A program made the translations under genes and the position numbers. From NCBI GenBank assembly GCA_004524445.1, contig SDNP01000024.1, forward strand, positions 1-48,109: a stretch of DNA of 48,109 bases, given 5' to 3'. The notes under the pieces are model-generated. The model was not told the DNA's origin, did not search any database, and saw only the letters and a list, made by a program, of their open reading frames with translations. Numbering within the stretch: the first letter of the stretch is position 1; each line of letters starts with the position of its first letter. Positions 5,780 to 24,790 of this stretch are shown in pieces. Origin of the DNA: Candidatus Thorarchaeota archaeon (GTDB lineage Archaea > Asgardarchaeota > Thorarchaeia > Thorarchaeales > Thorarchaeaceae).

Positions 5780-7123
5780 GTGGAAGAAACAGGTTTGGAG
5801 AGAGTGGGAAAAGAGGTACTGCAGAAGGCGGGCATAGAGAAGAATGTTATTGTAAGAATGTCATCTGATGATTTGGGTCTAAAGCCAAGATTTGAAGTGA
5901 CACAGGATGGACAATTGGAAATCACTGCAATTCACGAGGCCGAGGTACGAAGGCTAACGGGAAGGTTTGTAGTAAAACAGATGTTTCCAGGTTACAAGTG
6001 GCTACTAGCTGCACATCCCTATCGATTCGCTGTGATTCCTTCACTTCTCATCGTACTCGTAACCCTCTTGGAGCTTCTCGGGATTACTGCGTTTCAGGAT
6101 TTGTCCATATCGATATCTATTATCAGTGAGATAATCATAGCGTCCATTCTAATCTTCTTTTCCTACACCGCATCCCTGAGATACCACAAATGGAAGAGTG
6201 AGTTCTCAGAGTATATGAGAGAAATTGATGCAGTGACAGCCTATGATGGAGATGAATATGAGACGGACCAACATGCATCAGTTCTTACCATGGCGTCCAG
6301 TGCCGGAATTTCTATCCTGTTGTTGATTCTCAAATCAGAGGTATCCGCTATTGAGTTAGATATCATCTCACCAATAGCCCTAGTAGCTCTATTTGCGTCG
6401 GCCCTCACCTTGTTTGTTGAGATGCAGAGGGGGTTCTTTGATGAGAGCTGTTTTGATGAAACTGACTGGATTGATGACGAACTTCGAGACCCTACTACAT
6501 CCGAAGCCAATATCGCCAGCAGACTAAGTGCCCAGATAGCGGGAGAGATAGATGAATTGAACCTCTCCGATTATTTCGAGAGAGAAACAGGATTGGATGC
6601 ATCGAAAATTGATGTTGATTATAGGGAGATTCCATTCCCACACTGCAGGCTATTCCATTATTATACAGACGAGGATACTCTCATCTTCGAAGTCAATGAT
6701 CTAAATCAATCATCAGCAATCCATTTTGTTGATTCCCGGCTTCGTAGATTAGCAACACCTTATTTCAAAGAATTGGGTCTTCGTTGGAGAGTGCTGATAA
6801 TTTTCAATCTACTATTTCTGATCTTTTTCTATTTGACACTTCCACTAGTTTGGTACGCATTCGGAATTTTAGGTGGCCAACTCACCCTGCTAGCTGGCGG
6901 TATCATAATGATGGTGACAAGTTGGATCAATTATAAAAATCACCAAAAAGCCCAGGAGTCTTACCGGTCATTGTTGGATGAGTCCAAGTATATGACCGAC
7001 TATGACAAGCAGTACTACTACGATAGCCTCTTTGCCAACATGACTGCATATGACATAAAATTGCTGGCGGCATTTCTAGTCTTAGCCGCCATTGTGGAGT
7101 TAATCATCTATCTGTTGCTCTAG
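5780..7123 (+). CDS. Hypothetical multi-pass membrane protein with internal duplication
   Basis: 447 aa ORF with about 7 hydrophobic segments in two similar halves. Confidence 0.75.
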   Translation: MEETGLERVGKEVLQKAGIEKNVIVRMSSDDLGLKPRFEVTQDGQLEITAIHEAEVRRLTGRFVVKQMFPGYKWLLAAHPYRFAVIPSLLIVLVTLLELLGITAFQDLSISISIISEIIIASILIFFSYTASLRYHKWKSEFSEYMREIDAVTAYDGDEYETDQHASVLTMASSAGISILLLILKSEVSAIELDIISPIALVALFASALTLFVEMQRGFFDESCFDETDWIDDELRDPTTSEANIASRLSAQIAGEIDELNLSDYFERETGLDASKIDVDYREIPFPHCRLFHYYTDEDTLIFEVNDLNQSSAIHFVDSRLRRLATPYFKELGLRWRVLIIFNLLFLIFFYLTLPLVWYAFGILGGQLTLLAGGIIMMVTSWINYKNHQKAQESYRSLLDESKYMTDYDKQYYYDSLFANMTAYDIKLLAAFLVLAAIVELIIYLLL

Positions 7124-8768: not shown

Positions 8769-11753
8769 ATGCATGATTCACCATCCACGAGCCGAGAGGT
8801 AGATAACGTGACATCACAGACTGCAGAAACTGCAGATGAAACTCATAGAAAATTTCATGCGATGTCCCTTCAGGAAGTAATTGGTTCTTTGAAATCGAAC
8901 TCAGAACGGGGTCTCTCGAGCGGTGAAGCTAAGAATAGACTGGCAATTTACGGGCCAAACACAATCAAAAAAGTGAAGGGTTCCTTTTGGAAAGTGTATC
9001 TCGCTCCAATATTGAATTGGCTGATTAATATCTACCTCGTCAGTTCATTTGCTCTATTGATTCTTGCATTCTTTTTCCAATCTGCTGAAAACCAGGTGGG
9101 TCAAGCTCTTCTATGGCTAGGTGTGGTGAGCGTTAATTGTTTCGTGGCGATTTTCCAACAATTTCGAGCTCAGAAAAAGCTTGAAGCATTGGAGAAGCTA
9201 TCAGCGGGAGAGGCTCGAGTAGTACGTGATGGTTCTCAACTCAATCTACCTCCAGAGGAAATCGTCCCTGGAGATATCATAATACTTGAACAGGGAGATA
9301 AGATCCCCGCTGACTCAAGGATTCTGAATGAGAATAATCTGACGGTGAATGAAGCATCTCTGACGGGAGAAAGTGTCCCAGTTGATAAGGATGCCTCTAT
9401 TATTGTTGATGAAGATGCCCCATTAACAGATAGAAAGAATATGGTCTTCTTCGGAACGTATGTTGCAACAGGCACAGGAAGAGTCCTTGCCACCGAAACC
9501 GGGTCTGGAACACAGATTGGCAAGATTCAAGGAACCCTTGAGGAACTCAATACTGGCGATATTCCGCTACGGCGTAAGATAAATCGGCTGGCCAAATACT
9601 TGGGAATCGCTGCGATTTTTCTAATGATTCTCTCAGTCACTTGGGCACTCATTTGGGGACCGCTTCTCACTGCTCAACCAATTATGCTTGATCCCACTAC
9701 AATTGCTGACACGCTAACTTCAGGGATTACCAAGGCTATGACTATAATGCCAATCAACATTCCCTTGTTGTCCACCATTGTTCTTCTCACTGGTGTTCTA
9801 GCAATGGCTAAGATGGGAGTCATCATCAGAGACCTCTCAGCTGTTGAGAGCCTTGGAAGAGTCAGCCTAATCTGCTCCGATAAGACAGGAACTATGACAA
9901 GAAACCAGATGACGGTGAAATACATCTGGGATACTGAGAATCTGTATTCGGTGTCAGGCGCGGGTTACATACCGGAGGGAGGAATATACCGTGTTAAAGA
10001 TGGAACGCCTCTGGATACTTTCGAACCAGAAGAAGAGGTCAAAGTGACCGATGTTCTAGGATGGAAGAGCCTTCATAAACTGCTGGTATGTGGTGGAATC
10101 AATAATGATTCAGAGATAATAACAAAGGAGCTTCCCGAGCAGGGCATTGTTCATGTTCCGATGGGAGATCCAACAGATGCAGCTCTGCTTACTCTCTTTA
10201 GAAAGAGTGGGCTAAATGAGGAAGACATTGAGAAGAAATATCCAGTCGTGAAAGAGTTCCCATTTGAGTCAGACCTGAAGCGGATGTCGAAAATTTGTCG
10301 TGATGAAAATAGCTATATTGCATTCGTGAAGGGCGCCACAGAGATTTTGTTGCCTAGATGTACGAAACACGATGGCTCAAAGAATCCCAACAAAATGGAT
10401 TCAAGAATGAGAGAAAGAATAACGGAGATGACTACTGATTTTGCAGCGAAAGGATATCGTGTCATATCGTTAGCTTACAAAGAAATGAAATCAGTTCCAA
10501 GTAATCCCGATGCCAGAGAGTCAACAGAGCGCGATTTGACCTATCTCGGATTCACATGTATACTTGATCCTCCACGAGAAGGTGTGAAAGAAGCTGTGAA
10601 TGCGTGTCACAGTGCTGGCATCAATGTGATAATGATAACAGGAGATGCCGCAGCTACAGCTAAAACCATTGCAGCAGACTTGAACATCTTCAAACCAAAT
10701 TCACTCGCAATTGAAGGAAACGAAATTGATGAACTATCACCTGAAGACTTTCAGAATGTCAATGTGTTTGCACGGGTGAATCCAGCACATAAGCAGGTCA
10801 TCGTAGAGAGATACCAAGACCAGAAGAAGGTGGTGGCGATGACTGGCGACGGCGTTAACGATGCCTTGGCACTAGCCATGAGTGATGCAGGCATTGCCAT
10901 GGGGATAACAGGAACTGATGTGGCAAAAGAAGCTGCAGACTTGGTCATAACTGACGACAGCTTTTCGTCGATTGTCACTGGAGTGCATGAGGGAAGGGGA
11001 CTATTCAACAAAATCCGAATGATGGTCTACTTCTATGTCGCAATCAATCTGTTTGAATCAATTGTGTTCTTTGGAGGGATGTTCCTCTTGCCTGCTGGTT
11101 TTAATATGCTGACAGCTTGGCAAAGTCTCTACATTGTGGTTACTACGCATTCCTTCCCCGGACTCGCATTGGTATTTGACAAGACATCTCCTAGGGCAAT
11201 GGAAGAGAAACCACGAGATAGCGAGGAGATAATTACTAAGAAGCTTGCGAAATTTATGGGATTGAGCGTTGTATTGATGACCATTGGAGCTGCTATTGTC
11301 TATGGACTCACGTATTCTGGATGGGGTAACATTATTCCACTCTTTGTGGAGAATCAAGCAGGCTTCTATGCAGACTGGATTGACCCCATTAGCAGTGAGC
11401 CCTTTGCAATTACCAGCCCCGTCAAAGCCACCGTGATGCTGCTTACTATTTTGCTCTTAGTTGAGAGCTCAATGGTCCTCGTAATAAGACGGATCAATCT
11501 CCCACTTATTGATGCGATTAGAGAACCAGGCATCTGGCGATATGCTTTCCTTCTCGGACTCATATACCTAGCACATCTTCTTCTGATGTATGTTCCAATA
11601 GCGCAGGCCATCTTAGCTCCCCTTGGACTGCACTTCTATTTCATTCCGCTAACCACCTATGACTGGATTATCTGCATATTGGCTTCAGCTCCAGCTATTA
11701 TAGGAATGGAGATTTACAAGAAGTATTTGCGAATGAATGATGTTTCTCTGTGA
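8769..11753 (+). CDS. P-type ATPase, P2-like scaffold with non-canonical transport site
   Basis: TGES, CSDKTGT, KGATE, DPPR, MITGD and TGDGVNDA motifs; about 10 TM segments; M4 reads MPINIP instead of IPEGLP. Confidence 0.95.
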   Translation: MHDSPSTSREVDNVTSQTAETADETHRKFHAMSLQEVIGSLKSNSERGLSSGEAKNRLAIYGPNTIKKVKGSFWKVYLAPILNWLINIYLVSSFALLILAFFFQSAENQVGQALLWLGVVSVNCFVAIFQQFRAQKKLEALEKLSAGEARVVRDGSQLNLPPEEIVPGDIIILEQGDKIPADSRILNENNLTVNEASLTGESVPVDKDASIIVDEDAPLTDRKNMVFFGTYVATGTGRVLATETGSGTQIGKIQGTLEELNTGDIPLRRKINRLAKYLGIAAIFLMILSVTWALIWGPLLTAQPIMLDPTTIADTLTSGITKAMTIMPINIPLLSTIVLLTGVLAMAKMGVIIRDLSAVESLGRVSLICSDKTGTMTRNQMTVKYIWDTENLYSVSGAGYIPEGGIYRVKDGTPLDTFEPEEEVKVTDVLGWKSLHKLLVCGGINNDSEIITKELPEQGIVHVPMGDPTDAALLTLFRKSGLNEEDIEKKYPVVKEFPFESDLKRMSKICRDENSYIAFVKGATEILLPRCTKHDGSKNPNKMDSRMRERITEMTTDFAAKGYRVISLAYKEMKSVPSNPDARESTERDLTYLGFTCILDPPREGVKEAVNACHSAGINVIMITGDAAATAKTIAADLNIFKPNSLAIEGNEIDELSPEDFQNVNVFARVNPAHKQVIVERYQDQKKVVAMTGDGVNDALALAMSDAGIAMGITGTDVAKEAADLVITDDSFSSIVTGVHEGRGLFNKIRMMVYFYVAINLFESIVFFGGMFLLPAGFNMLTAWQSLYIVVTTHSFPGLALVFDKTSPRAMEEKPRDSEEIITKKLAKFMGLSVVLMTIGAAIVYGLTYSGWGNIIPLFVENQAGFYADWIDPISSEPFAITSPVKATVMLLTILLLVESSMVLVIRRINLPLIDAIREPGIWRYAFLLGLIYLAHLLLMYVPIAQAILAPLGLHFYFIPLTTYDWIICILASAPAIIGMEIYKKYLRMNDVSL

Positions 11754-14028: not shown

Positions 14029-14451
14029 CTATAGTACCATATGGTCAAGCCCCATGTCCCTGAGAACCTCGGGGTAAATCTTGAACAGAGGTTTTATTTT
14101 GGACAGGAGTCCCAGAGCTTTTGCAATGGAACCATCCAGCTTAACCTCTCCTTTTGCCATTGCAATAGTCGTATTCAGTTTCCCCTGCCAGAATTTATTG
14201 GTAGTTTCAGAGGTGCTCCACACAGCAATCTCAGGTTCCACATCGGAGTCAAAGCTCAGTGTCCCCAACTTACCATCTTCGCCTTCCTCCTGGAAGTTGA
14301 TTGTGACATGAACTTCGGGTTGCTCGATATCAAATCTGACAATAATTCCAGATTTTGCCAATTTTTCATGTACCTCTTCTTGTTCCTTGGCACGAGGCCA
14401 GAAGTTGCGAAATACTTCCTTCAACTGCTCGCTATTTTCGTAATAAGGCAT
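14029..14451 (-). CDS. SCP2 sterol/lipid-binding domain protein
   Basis: FWQGKLNTTIAMAKGEVKLDGSIAKAL matches the SCP2 C-terminal pattern. Confidence 0.85.
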   Translation of the reverse strand: MPYYENSEQLKEVFRNFWPRAKEQEEVHEKLAKSGIIVRFDIEQPEVHVTINFQEEGEDGKLGTLSFDSDVEPEIAVWSTSETTNKFWQGKLNTTIAMAKGEVKLDGSIAKALGLLSKIKPLFKIYPEVLRDMGLDHMVL

Positions 14452-21766: not shown

Positions 21767-21868
21767 CTCCCTCAAGTCGTTTTTGATTCGGATTCCAAAA
21801 CCAGAAAGACACAAGTATAGGCATTTCATGGGATGCCATGGGCCACCATCGGCATCAGGAAAGATCAC

Positions 21869-24790
21869 TTGAATAGAAAATTCTTATCACTAGCGGTTGT
21901 AATTATCATCCTGGGAGCTTCTGTATTTGCCGTTTTTCTTCTGTTTCAGCAAAACCGCATCAGCCCAGAGCCAACAGATACACCTTCCACTGAGGGCGGT
22001 ACAGTTTCAATAAATGAAATACACTTCAATGAAACGTTAACAGTGAACGAAGAATTCTTCGAACTATACATTCAAACATGGAAGTCGGGGATGAGTATTG
22101 ATGGTTGGTATGTCACAACCTTTGACGGTGAGGGAATGTTGTCTCTGCCTTCCATTGCCAATTTAGATGAAGAGGACTACATCGCCATTTTCTCAGGAGA
22201 AGGAGAAGATGATCTGGATGCGATCGATGGAACAGCAAAGGTTTTCCTCAATTTACCGAACCGAATACTGGACCCATCGGGCGATGAAATTGGTCTATTC
22301 GATAGAGAAGGACACGTAATTGATTTCATTCGTTATGAAGGTGGAAATGGAGATGCGATATATTCCGGTTGGCAAGAAGCAAATATGGGACCACATCTCC
22401 CCGATAATCACACAGGCTCAATCTCCCTATTTGGTTATGACTCAAGTAATGCGAGTAAATGGTTGGAAAGCTTACCTTCGCCCGGTAGGCCAAATGTGTA
22501 CAGTTTCTTTGATTCTGAGACCGGGTACACTGTAACGATTACTAATGGCCTACACCAGCTATTCTCATTTAACGGAATTGATGATTCATTAATTGCCGGG
22601 AAGGGAGAAAAAGTCGATGCCTATCCAAAGGGAGGAGTCGATGAGAAATATATCAAGGAAATCAAGAAGCACATTGCATTCAGTTTGGATTTCTATCACA
22701 AGAAGGGATTCACTAGAGGACCGGCTACATATAAACCAGGAAAAATCAATGTGACTTTACTTAATAGCACCACAACCGAAACCGTTGGAGCAGCATCAAC
22801 GAGGGGACATATCGTCATTAAGATTGGAACAATCAAGAGCGATGTGGATTTGAAGTATGTATGTGAACATGAACTGATGCACCTATTCCAATTCAAGACA
22901 GAGAAGAAAGGGAATGATACTGTTGATCATGCACCAGTAGGCAATAAATTCTGGATTGAGGGTCAAGCTACTTATTGGGGAGTTGAGTCAACACGGGCGA
23001 ATTATAATTTGACTCATAAAGAAATTCAGGATGAATTCAAGAGAGTTGGAGATCACAATTGGCATGAGCATTACACCGATTTGAATAGGTCAATATTCAA
23101 GGGATGGGGCGGCGGGTATTCCGACTACATGGGTTCTTATCTGTTCAATAAGTTCATAGCTGAGAAGTTCGGGGAAGATAAACTCAAACAGATATTTGAT
23201 ACTGCACAGGATAATTTCAACAATAATTCTAGGGATGTCAGTCCAAAAGAAGCGATCACGCTGGTACTCGGAAAGACCTGGGAACAGGTGCTAGCTGAGT
23301 TTCATGCATGGATGCTGACTGATGCTATAGAAGACAATGGCGTTCCTGAGAGAAAAGGACATGTCAATGTTACATATAATAATGATACGATTGGTGACAG
23401 CATCAAAGTAGGCTCGTATGCAGCTGGCGTTGAGAGAATCAAAGTAAATAGCTCACAACCTTTCAAGATTAAACTCAATGCAAAAGCAGGAAGTAAGTGG
23501 AAGATTACAATCATCTATGTCTATGAAGATGGGACACGAAAACAAATGATAGGTTCACCCTATGATCACGGTTCAAGCTATCCGCATATTGCTGTCAATC
23601 CTGAGGGTCATGAGAAGAAGCTTGTAGAGGTTATTGTAATCAAGAGCCATGTTGAAGACTCAGTCGCGAGAATCAACATGACTGTCTCGCCAATTCCCCG
23701 ACCAGGACCAGTACAGATTACCCCGAATGGAGGCCCCTACTTCTTCGAACTGCCTTGGGGCATGGGAAATAGCACTCGACTGAATTGGCCGTGGGAGGTC
23801 TTTTGGAACTTCTCATATTATCAGGATAATTTGAACTATACCCTAAGAATCAACCATACATCGGTAAGAAGTGATAGCGCATTCAATATAACAATCGAAT
23901 CGCCAAACGCGACTGTCTTTGAGGAAACGGGAATATACGGCAATGGACAAATCCTGGTTTATTTCGATCCAGAATATACCTGGCCCTTTGGTGAATACAA
24001 GATAACAGTGGCACAATACAACTGGACTTCTGAGGTCAACGGAACAATAGAAATCCTAGAGGGCTGGAGAGATGGAGCGGCTGCGGATTATCCAATCGTA
24101 ATAGTTCCTGATGAGCCTCATGAAATCAACAACGAACTATGGCGAACGCCTGAATCTATATGGTACAATCTCACGCTGGTTCCAGATTTCGACTATACTT
24201 TGTTCCTGGAAATAGATGCCGGATATGAAACGGAGGCAGACTGGTATATTGAGGTATATAATTCCACCAATCTAGAAAGCCCCATATCTTCGAACGAAGG
24301 AGAGTATTCGGACGGTGAGTGGCCACGAGAGCTACTTTTGCCACGTTTCTTTGAAGAGAAATATCCATGCGATGGCTTTGCTCTACTAAAGGTCATTCTA
24401 AGTGGATCTTCATCAGCAGCAATAGGTCAACTCACTGTTCTGGAACAGCCAATCTCGGGGTCATCAATTGATAATCCATTGTGGTATAATCCAAATACAA
24501 CAGAATACTTTGGAATTCCTCTTCCATACTCAATTCATGAAATGGGCCTGCTTTTCATCAATACAACCTTGACAAGCGGGAAAATGTATTCAACCCAATT
24601 CAACTGCTCTGAGCAGATAACAGCCGAGCTCTGGAACGGGGAAAACTGGCTACTATTTGAATATGATAACCCAAGTGATTTCTATAATGTGACTTACGAA
24701 GCGATATCGGAAGTTATCTGCATAAGATTCGATGTTGCGCCATCTCCTGAATCTGTTCTATTCTATATGCTGACAGAAGTTTCCACATAG
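21869..24790 (+). CDS. Membrane-anchored extracellular zinc metallopeptidase (gluzincin, HExxH) with N-terminal lamin-tail-like domain
   Basis: N-terminal TM; VSINEI...EFFELY...SPGRPN (LTD); HELMHLFQ plus WIEGQATY; more than 20 N-x-S/T sequons. Start is TTG 21869 or ATG 21833. Confidence 0.8.
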   Translation: MNRKFLSLAVVIIILGASVFAVFLLFQQNRISPEPTDTPSTEGGTVSINEIHFNETLTVNEEFFELYIQTWKSGMSIDGWYVTTFDGEGMLSLPSIANLDEEDYIAIFSGEGEDDLDAIDGTAKVFLNLPNRILDPSGDEIGLFDREGHVIDFIRYEGGNGDAIYSGWQEANMGPHLPDNHTGSISLFGYDSSNASKWLESLPSPGRPNVYSFFDSETGYTVTITNGLHQLFSFNGIDDSLIAGKGEKVDAYPKGGVDEKYIKEIKKHIAFSLDFYHKKGFTRGPATYKPGKINVTLLNSTTTETVGAASTRGHIVIKIGTIKSDVDLKYVCEHELMHLFQFKTEKKGNDTVDHAPVGNKFWIEGQATYWGVESTRANYNLTHKEIQDEFKRVGDHNWHEHYTDLNRSIFKGWGGGYSDYMGSYLFNKFIAEKFGEDKLKQIFDTAQDNFNNNSRDVSPKEAITLVLGKTWEQVLAEFHAWMLTDAIEDNGVPERKGHVNVTYNNDTIGDSIKVGSYAAGVERIKVNSSQPFKIKLNAKAGSKWKITIIYVYEDGTRKQMIGSPYDHGSSYPHIAVNPEGHEKKLVEVIVIKSHVEDSVARINMTVSPIPRPGPVQITPNGGPYFFELPWGMGNSTRLNWPWEVFWNFSYYQDNLNYTLRINHTSVRSDSAFNITIESPNATVFEETGIYGNGQILVYFDPEYTWPFGEYKITVAQYNWTSEVNGTIEILEGWRDGAAADYPIVIVPDEPHEINNELWRTPESIWYNLTLVPDFDYTLFLEIDAGYETEADWYIEVYNSTNLESPISSNEGEYSDGEWPRELLLPRFFEEKYPCDGFALLKVILSGSSSAAIGQLTVLEQPISGSSIDNPLWYNPNTTEYFGIPLPYSIHEMGLLFINTTLTSGKMYSTQFNCSEQITAELWNGENWLLFEYDNPSDFYNVTYEAISEVICIRFDVAPSPESVLFYMLTEVST

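Follow-up and report, generated by a model that had tools for sequence, protein, structure and literature searches.

The class and substrate of a P-type ATPase are predicted from a few residues on its transmembrane (TM) helices M4, M5, M6 and M8, and a gene from an Asgard archaeon raises the question of what such a pump carries when the most conserved of these residues are gone. The gene lies on the forward strand at positions 8769-11753 of a 48,109-nucleotide stretch of DNA from Candidatus Thorarchaeota archaeon (GCA_004524445.1, contig SDNP01000024.1), referred to here as the window. Its product belongs to a family, which we call the Asgard PxNxP/His clade, in which both the M4 Glu and the M6 Asp have been exchanged, as a coordinated and strongly conserved change. 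We are confident that this is a distinct clade of P-type ATPases with a rebuilt ion site, and that the pump is not a lipid flippase.

The open reading frame (ORF) at 8769-11753 is predicted to encode a working P-type ATPase with its catalytic machinery intact. The stop-free frame spans 994 amino acids, including an N-terminal stretch of 31 codons that may be untranslated: because codon 9 of the longer frame is TGA in the sister genome G143 (L092:1501-1600, against window 8769-8864), the pump may start at M32 (8862..8864, forward strand like all residues of the pump given below), the equivalent of which is where the sister-genome ORF begins. Residues 1-24 are disordered in an AlphaFold2 (AF2) model, with a predicted local distance difference test score (pLDDT) below 50. 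Translation yields the TGES dephosphorylation loop of the actuator (A) domain (residues 199-202, 9363..9374), the DKTGT motif with the phosphorylated Asp371 (residues 371-375, 9879..9893) and the TGDGVND hinge motif (residues 692-698, 10842..10862), all three of which an initial reading of the letters, the first-pass annotation, had reported as intact. The latter two motifs are invariant in the family, and T199, G200 and E201 are invariant or nearly so. With all three motifs present, the pump scores 268 bits against the P-type superfamily model TIGR01494 (HAD-IC), above the cut-off of 62.3, and it carries the full P2-type set of Pfam domains: Cation_ATPase_N, E1-E2_ATPase, Cation_ATPase, Hydrolase and Cation_ATPase_C.

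Where this protein departs from its relatives is in the membrane. In SERCA, Ca2+ site I is built by E771, T799, D800, E908 and N768, site II is built by E309, N796, D800 and M4 carbonyls, and a pore between M1, M2 and M4 joins E309 to the cytosol (10.1101/470948). In the Thorarchaeota pump, M4 reads MPINIP in place of PEGL (residues 327-332, 9747..9764), so that P328 is followed by I329 in the E309 slot and N330 in the G310 slot, with P332 closing the motif. M6 reads LYIVVTTHSFP (residues 787-797, 11127..11159), with V790 in the N796 slot, T793 in the T799 slot and H794 (11148..11150) in the D800 slot. A HMMER alignment to Listeria LMCA1 sets PINI opposite PEAL and V...H opposite N...D, so the replacements of E309 by Ile, N796 by Val and D800 by His are correctly assigned. 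Site-I residues are kept on M5, in N760-L-F-E763 of the motif AINLFE (11046..11057; the equivalents of SERCA N768 and E771), and on M8, in Glu899 of LLVES (11463..11465; the E908 slot), with His taking the place of D800. The first-pass annotation had described these same substitutions and retained residues, and had concluded that the pump cannot use the canonical Ca2+ site II. That conclusion agrees with our alignment: with I329, V790 and H794 in its slots, the canonical site cannot form.

These features hold across the family and not only in this one protein. A profile-free scan covered 1.84 billion cluster representatives, and we compared 30 full-length family members with 109 canonical PEGL pumps. 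P328 and E763 are present in 30 of the 30 members, Q785, H794 and P797 in 29, E899 in 28, N330 in 27 and N760 in 26. His occupies the D800 slot in none of the 109 canonical pumps, and none has Asn in the G310 slot, where the near-invariant family Asn, N330, adds a residue on the unwound stretch of M4. The residues that build site II in SERCA have given way to hydrophobic or aromatic ones: beside the Ile in the E309 slot, the N796 slot holds Tyr, Phe, Val or Ile (Asn in 107/109 canonical pumps), and the L764 slot holds Tyr or Phe (mostly Leu in canonical pumps). The M1/M2/M4 entry path is also altered, with the conserved Gln and Glu of SERCA, Q56 and E109, lost across the family. The Q56 slot, Pro80 on M1 of the pump (9006..9008), is Pro in 26/30 members and Gln in 100/109 canonical pumps, and the E109 slot, Gln131 on M2 (9159..9161), is Gln in 25/30 and Glu in 105/109. 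Other positions discriminate less. The M5 Asn and Glu are conserved in canonical pumps as well; the E908 slot, Glu in the family, is Gln in 64 and Glu in 40 of the 109; and the Asn found at the D59 slot in 24/30 members is not family-specific, being common in canonical pumps too (Asp 51, Asn 24 and Ser 21 of 109).

The boundary of the family is sharp. About 35-40 representatives, down to roughly 37% identity, have an M4 without Glu, and those that cover M6 have a His there; all matches in the scan below about 520 bits are canonical PEGL / N..D pumps. Closer to the pump, an orthologue search in 5.8 billion proteins returned 120 orthologues at 64-92% identity; MPINIP is identical in 121/121 sequences (at least 64% identity), and none carries PEGL. 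Thus, the substitutions are a conserved design, not a sequencing error or a private mutation. The gene is under strong purifying selection: compared with the sister genome, the ratio of nonsynonymous to synonymous substitution rates (dN/dS) is 0.068 for the gene as a whole and 0.042 within the TM helices. In the divergent member P0143, N330, N760 and H794 are missing together, a weak hint that these three residues may act as a unit.

Profile models place the pump nearest the P2 class but in none of its named subfamilies. Against NCBIfam models it scores 474 bits for IIA2, 419 for IIA1, 415 for IID, 390 for IIB, 352 for IIC, 331 for IIIA, 297 for IIIB, 231 for V and 106 for IV (P4). P2 models rank first, and no equivalog cut-off is reached. 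The two P2A models are missed by a wide gap (TIGR01116, 419 bits against 703.4; TIGR01522, 474 against 798.3), and the P2A site-II signature, the PEGL Glu with M6 Asn...Asp, is replaced by I329, V790 and H794. Scores also fall below cut-off for the P3A model TIGR01647 (331 against 615.5), with H794 and E763 at the positions aligned to the P3A M6 Asp and M5 Arg; for the P3B (MgtA) model TIGR01524 (297 against 610.75), with PINIP in place of PEMLP; for the P5 model TIGR01657 (231 against 618.25), with MPINIP in place of PP(E/A)LP; and for the P4 model TIGR01652 (106 against 431.25). Nor does the pump match the CtpE-type P6 signature, since it has PINIP and an M6 His, not PEGL and Ile. What it does carry is the full signature of the Asgard clade: P-[IVFWL]-N-[ILF]-[PV] on M4, N..E on M5, His on M6 and Glu on M8.

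Phylogenies, which the first-pass annotation had proposed as a check, give the same placement among prokaryotic references. In a FastTree phylogeny of 144 rows, rooted on the P1B pumps of the same genome, 30/30 family representatives form one clade, sister to 111 PEGL pumps. A second tree, made with IQ-TREE (LG+G4, 76 rows), also includes three P3A references that reach at least 920 bits on TIGR01647 (two Crocosphaera sequences and one Methanobacterium sequence) and two P3B references from Paraburkholderia; it has no P2C reference because a profile search of five genomes with TIGR01106 (P2C) returned no match. Support by the Shimodaira-Hasegawa-like approximate likelihood ratio test (SH-aLRT) is 100 for the family, within which the pump nests, and 99 for the PEGL group; the two together, excluding P3A and P3B, receive 93. 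The P3A references form their own clade of support 100, and the P3B references likewise lie outside the family. The family is a distinct old clade, sister to the prokaryotic PEGL (P2A-like) cation pumps and outside P3A and P3B.

The predicted structure agrees with a P2-type fold. The AF2 model (pLDDT 86, predicted template modelling score 0.79) has ten TM helices, with the M4 helix broken at 327-329 and the M6 helix broken at 794-795. Its best structural matches, at Z 30-35, are LMCA1, SPCA1, SERCA, PMCA, PfATP4, Pma1 and Na,K-ATPase, and LMCA1, SPCA1, SERCA and PMCA align over the ten-TM fold at Z 31-35. The P2A pumps (Listeria LMCA1, 6zhf/9evc; human SPCA1, 8iwp-8iww; SERCA1/2) are thus the closest known systems. 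They match the pump best both in sequence (E 1e-123 to 1e-98) and in structure (Z 31-35), they share the ten TM helices, the N- and C-terminal cation-ATPase domains, the M5 N/E, the M8 Glu, M2 N101/Q108, M6 Q791 and P803, and they are the sister clade in the tree. They differ in having PEGLP on M4 where the Asgard family has PINIP, N...D on M6 where it has V/Y/F...H, and the M1 Gln and M2 Glu that the family has exchanged for Pro and Gln.

What, then, might the rebuilt site bind? Site II is filled in and the other site is rebuilt from two Glu, one His and two Asn; from this combination we conclude that the substrate is probably a small cation other than Ca2+. Like their SERCA counterparts E771, D800, E908 and N768, the residues E763, H794, E899 and N760 would line a common pocket, which N330 may close from the unwound part of M4. 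Two carboxylates, one imidazole and two amides would give the ligand set a net charge of -2, which should suit a single divalent metal with N/O ligands (Mn2+, Fe2+, Co2+, Ni2+ or Zn2+) better than Ca2+, Na+ or K+. In the P1B-4 pumps for Co2+, Fe2+ and Zn2+ (SPC ... HEGxT), a His beside a carboxylate on the M6-equivalent helix is a transition-metal ligand. These pumps differ in other respects, having eight TM helices, SPC on M4 and no close sequence kinship to the Asgard family.

We tentatively favor a model in which the protein is a single-site cation pump, most likely exporting one divalent transition metal per cycle; the model as a whole we would put just short of an even chance. In this model, one small cation would enter from the cytoplasm and bind in a pocket of E763, H794, E899, N760 and N330, become occluded upon phosphorylation of D371, and be released to the outside in the E2P state; H794 and the glutamates would then be protonated as the return charge in the second half of the cycle. 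The identity of the ion as specifically a divalent transition metal is possible, and we hold it a shade less firmly than the single-site model as a whole. Similarly tentative is the broader proposal that the clade founds a P-type subfamily, sister to all prokaryotic P2A-like pumps, with an imidazole-centered site and a substrate novel for P2 pumps. If the substrate were a transition metal such as Fe2+ or Mn2+, this would be the first P2-type heavy-metal pump.

Several points weigh against metal export. The geometry of the pocket is taken from homology to SERCA, and the role given to N330 would be its weakest link. With its entry funnel neutralized, the pump would be at least as good a fit for protons or monovalent ions as for a divalent metal, and it has no N-terminal metal-binding domain. 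No conserved metal-related neighbor or regulator appears in the window or the compared loci, and a literature search returned no paper on any member of the clade. The trees, moreover, cover prokaryotic references only, with the eukaryotic P2A-D, P4 and P5 pumps left out.

The strongest competitor to metal export is a proton pump, which we consider unlikely yet the best of the alternatives. The same ligand set of charge -2 would also match a proton relay. Under this reading, the E763-H794 pair together with E899 would hold one proton in the E1 state, in a similar way to the Asp-Asn pair of P3A pumps, and the proton would be released outside when the pair separates in E2P, with a plug of I329, Y/F/V790 and Y/F756 blocking back-leak. 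The P3A pumps (Pma1, AHA2 and the Crocosphaera and Methanobacterium references) resemble the family in having a hydrophobic E309 slot, PVAMP or PVAQP against PINIP, and a single remodelled site deep in the membrane, and Pma1 matches the AF2 model at Z of about 31-32. The neutralized entry funnel, acidic in canonical pumps, is also well suited to a water wire or proton path. The Glu-His pair is a classic arrangement for relaying protons, as in LacY, and counts in favor of this alternative. E771 and E908 of SERCA, moreover, bear its counter-transported protons (10.1101/470948). The clade nonetheless groups with P2-like pumps and not with P3A, and the P3A model TIGR01647 gives 331 bits, less than the 474 of the best P2 model. 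The residues that do the work in P3A, the M5 Arg and M6 Asp, are missing, their places taken by Glu and His, and five conserved polar ligands exceed what one proton needs. Should protons nevertheless be the substrate, the Glu-His relay would have arisen independently of P3A.

A more conventional alternative to metal export is an ordinary Ca2+, Na+, K+ or Mg2+ pump that works with a site-I-like pocket only and tolerates His in the D800 slot. Four of the five site-I residues of SERCA are kept, the nearest solved relatives are Ca2+ pumps, and all sources annotate the family as Ca2+ or cation ATPases. We nevertheless judge this improbable, and more so than a proton pump. To our knowledge, all single-site Ca2+ pumps (LMCA1, SPCA and PMCA) keep site II and not site I, with E309, N796 and D800 in place, as the alignment to LMCA1 also indicates; the sole site of these pumps is the one erased in the Asgard family. 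His occurs in the D800 slot in 0/109 canonical relatives, no equivalog cut-off is reached, and the same genome already has three PEGL pumps.

The first-pass annotation had gone in another direction, suggesting from the Ile after the M4 Pro that the pump is a flippase-like transporter of lipids or organic cations, or a P2/P4 evolutionary intermediate. The host is indeed an Asgard archaeon, as that annotation had surmised, and Ile does occupy the E309 slot in the PISL motif of P4 flippases such as ATP8A and Drs2. That residue is, however, the sole likeness, and because P3A references also carry a hydrophobic E309 slot (PVAMP/PVAQP), Ile alone does not mark a flippase. With the P4 model TIGR01652, whose cut-off is 431, the pump reaches 106 bits, as compared with 390-474 for the best P2 models. 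The A domain has TGES (199-202) where P4 pumps have DGET, an absence that the first-pass annotation had itself counted against a P4 assignment. The buried E763 (30/30), E899 (28/30) and H794 (29/30) are nearly invariant and thus point to a site for ions or protons and not to a lipid groove; P4 flippases, whose M5 is of the Lys/Asn type, have no buried carboxylates at the canonical ion site. The clade is sister to prokaryotic P2-like pumps. No P4 chain appears among the top 50 structural matches in either structure search. A search of 201 Asgard genomes with TIGR01652 gave no match at E<=1e-40, with control genomes that are uninformative for a family found only in eukaryotes. No recurrent partner gene stands beside the pump in the 15 loci examined, the genome as a whole not having been searched with a CDC50 model. 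We judge a flippase or a P2/P4 intermediate very improbable, and the clade has no bearing on the origin of eukaryotic flippases.

Equally remote is the possibility that the ATPase no longer transports, or is decaying, after the loss of its ion sites: site II is erased, and P0143 lacks N330, N760 and H794, but dN/dS is 0.07 overall and 0.04 in the TM helices, the catalytic motifs and new site residues persist at identities as low as 37%, and most of the Asgard genomes searched carry the family.

Another related system is the P6 family. Like the Asgard clade, P6 is a prokaryotic, P2-related family in which the otherwise universal M6 Asp has been replaced; the mycobacterial pump CtpE keeps PEGL and has Ile in the M6 Asp slot (PMC10654040, Palmgren 2023). 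The Asgard family differs in losing PEGL and in having an M6 His. The same review expects further prokaryotic P-type families to be found (PMC10654040). Our literature search found no description of the Asgard PxNxP/His clade or its site, and databases label the family as cation or Ca2+ P-type ATPases. For each of its five proteomes, a study of the Asgard transportome lists only a 'putative Ca2+ ATPase (TC 3.A.3.2.21)' (PMC7997004), an entry that could not be linked to the PINIP pump. Identifying the substrate would add a specificity class to the P-type superfamily and supply a missing piece of how Asgard archaea, most of whose genomes carry the gene, handle ions and metals.

At E<=1e-150, the family is matched in 218/301 Asgard genomes and in 72/90 high-quality ones, and about ten Asgard taxonomic families have no match among the genomes searched. 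Close orthologues with named hosts come nearly all from metagenome-assembled genomes (MAGs) of Thor-, Loki- or Promethearchaeota, and the named members of distant subclades come from Odin-, Hel- and Promethearchaeota, with one labelled 'Korarchaeota'. The clade is thus almost restricted to Asgard archaea. A motif-based contig search that relied on the generic patterns DKTGT and GDGVND found nothing but PEGL pumps of bacteria and archaea, at 30-37% identity, and is uninformative on the spread of the family. In the 'Korarchaeota' MAG, which encodes member P0127, a small GTPase of the Arf/Ras/Roc type lies two genes downstream (L103:9548-10129); the bin label may be wrong, and the contig is perhaps Asgard.

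Many Asgard genomes (taxonomic families f9, f14 and f24) have two copies of the gene. The two may match the PINIP and P[VF]NFP / PW[NS]FP subclades, which would suggest sub-functionalization within the clade. In the Thorarchaeota genome itself, the pump is accompanied by three canonical PEGL pumps and three P1B pumps (CPC, CPC and CPH, with no SPC type seen among them). Since these other pumps are present, the PINIP pump is an additional paralogue and neither a mutated sole Ca2+ pump nor a redundant copy. The P-type pumps lie on contigs C2, C16, C53, C5, C13 and C42; one PEGL pump is cut by a contig end, and a further P-type fragment lies at the end of contig C42.

The gene neighborhood differs between lineages. 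In the window, panB follows the pump, and the genes upstream of it encode a divergent flavodoxin/4Fe-4S protein and a TPR protein; panB is downstream of the pump in six close loci. Nine loci from the same taxonomic family (L093-L101) have a divergent S8 subtilase of about 420 amino acids just upstream of the pump, and six of these nine have a membrane-anchored protein of about 480 amino acids, with a weak UFL1-like winged-helix match, downstream of it. In the genus of the window, the flavodoxin/4Fe-4S and TPR genes replace the subtilase and UFL1-like neighbors, and the subtilase orthologue is on contig C38. Three more distant contigs have no recurrent neighbor of the pump, and the compared pump neighborhoods hold no visible subunit, chaperone, regulator or substrate hint.

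Elsewhere in the window, a 447-amino-acid ORF at 5780-7123 (forward strand) has no Pfam match at E<=0.001, and a 985-amino-acid ORF at 21833-24790 (forward strand) has the Lamin Tail Domain as its sole Pfam match, at 32.9 bits against a cut-off of 34.3. A gene for a small protein of the SCP2 sterol-transfer family, at 14029-14451 on the reverse strand, adjoins glutamine synthetase; on another contig, the pump gene of family member P0139 likewise has an SCP2 gene nearby.

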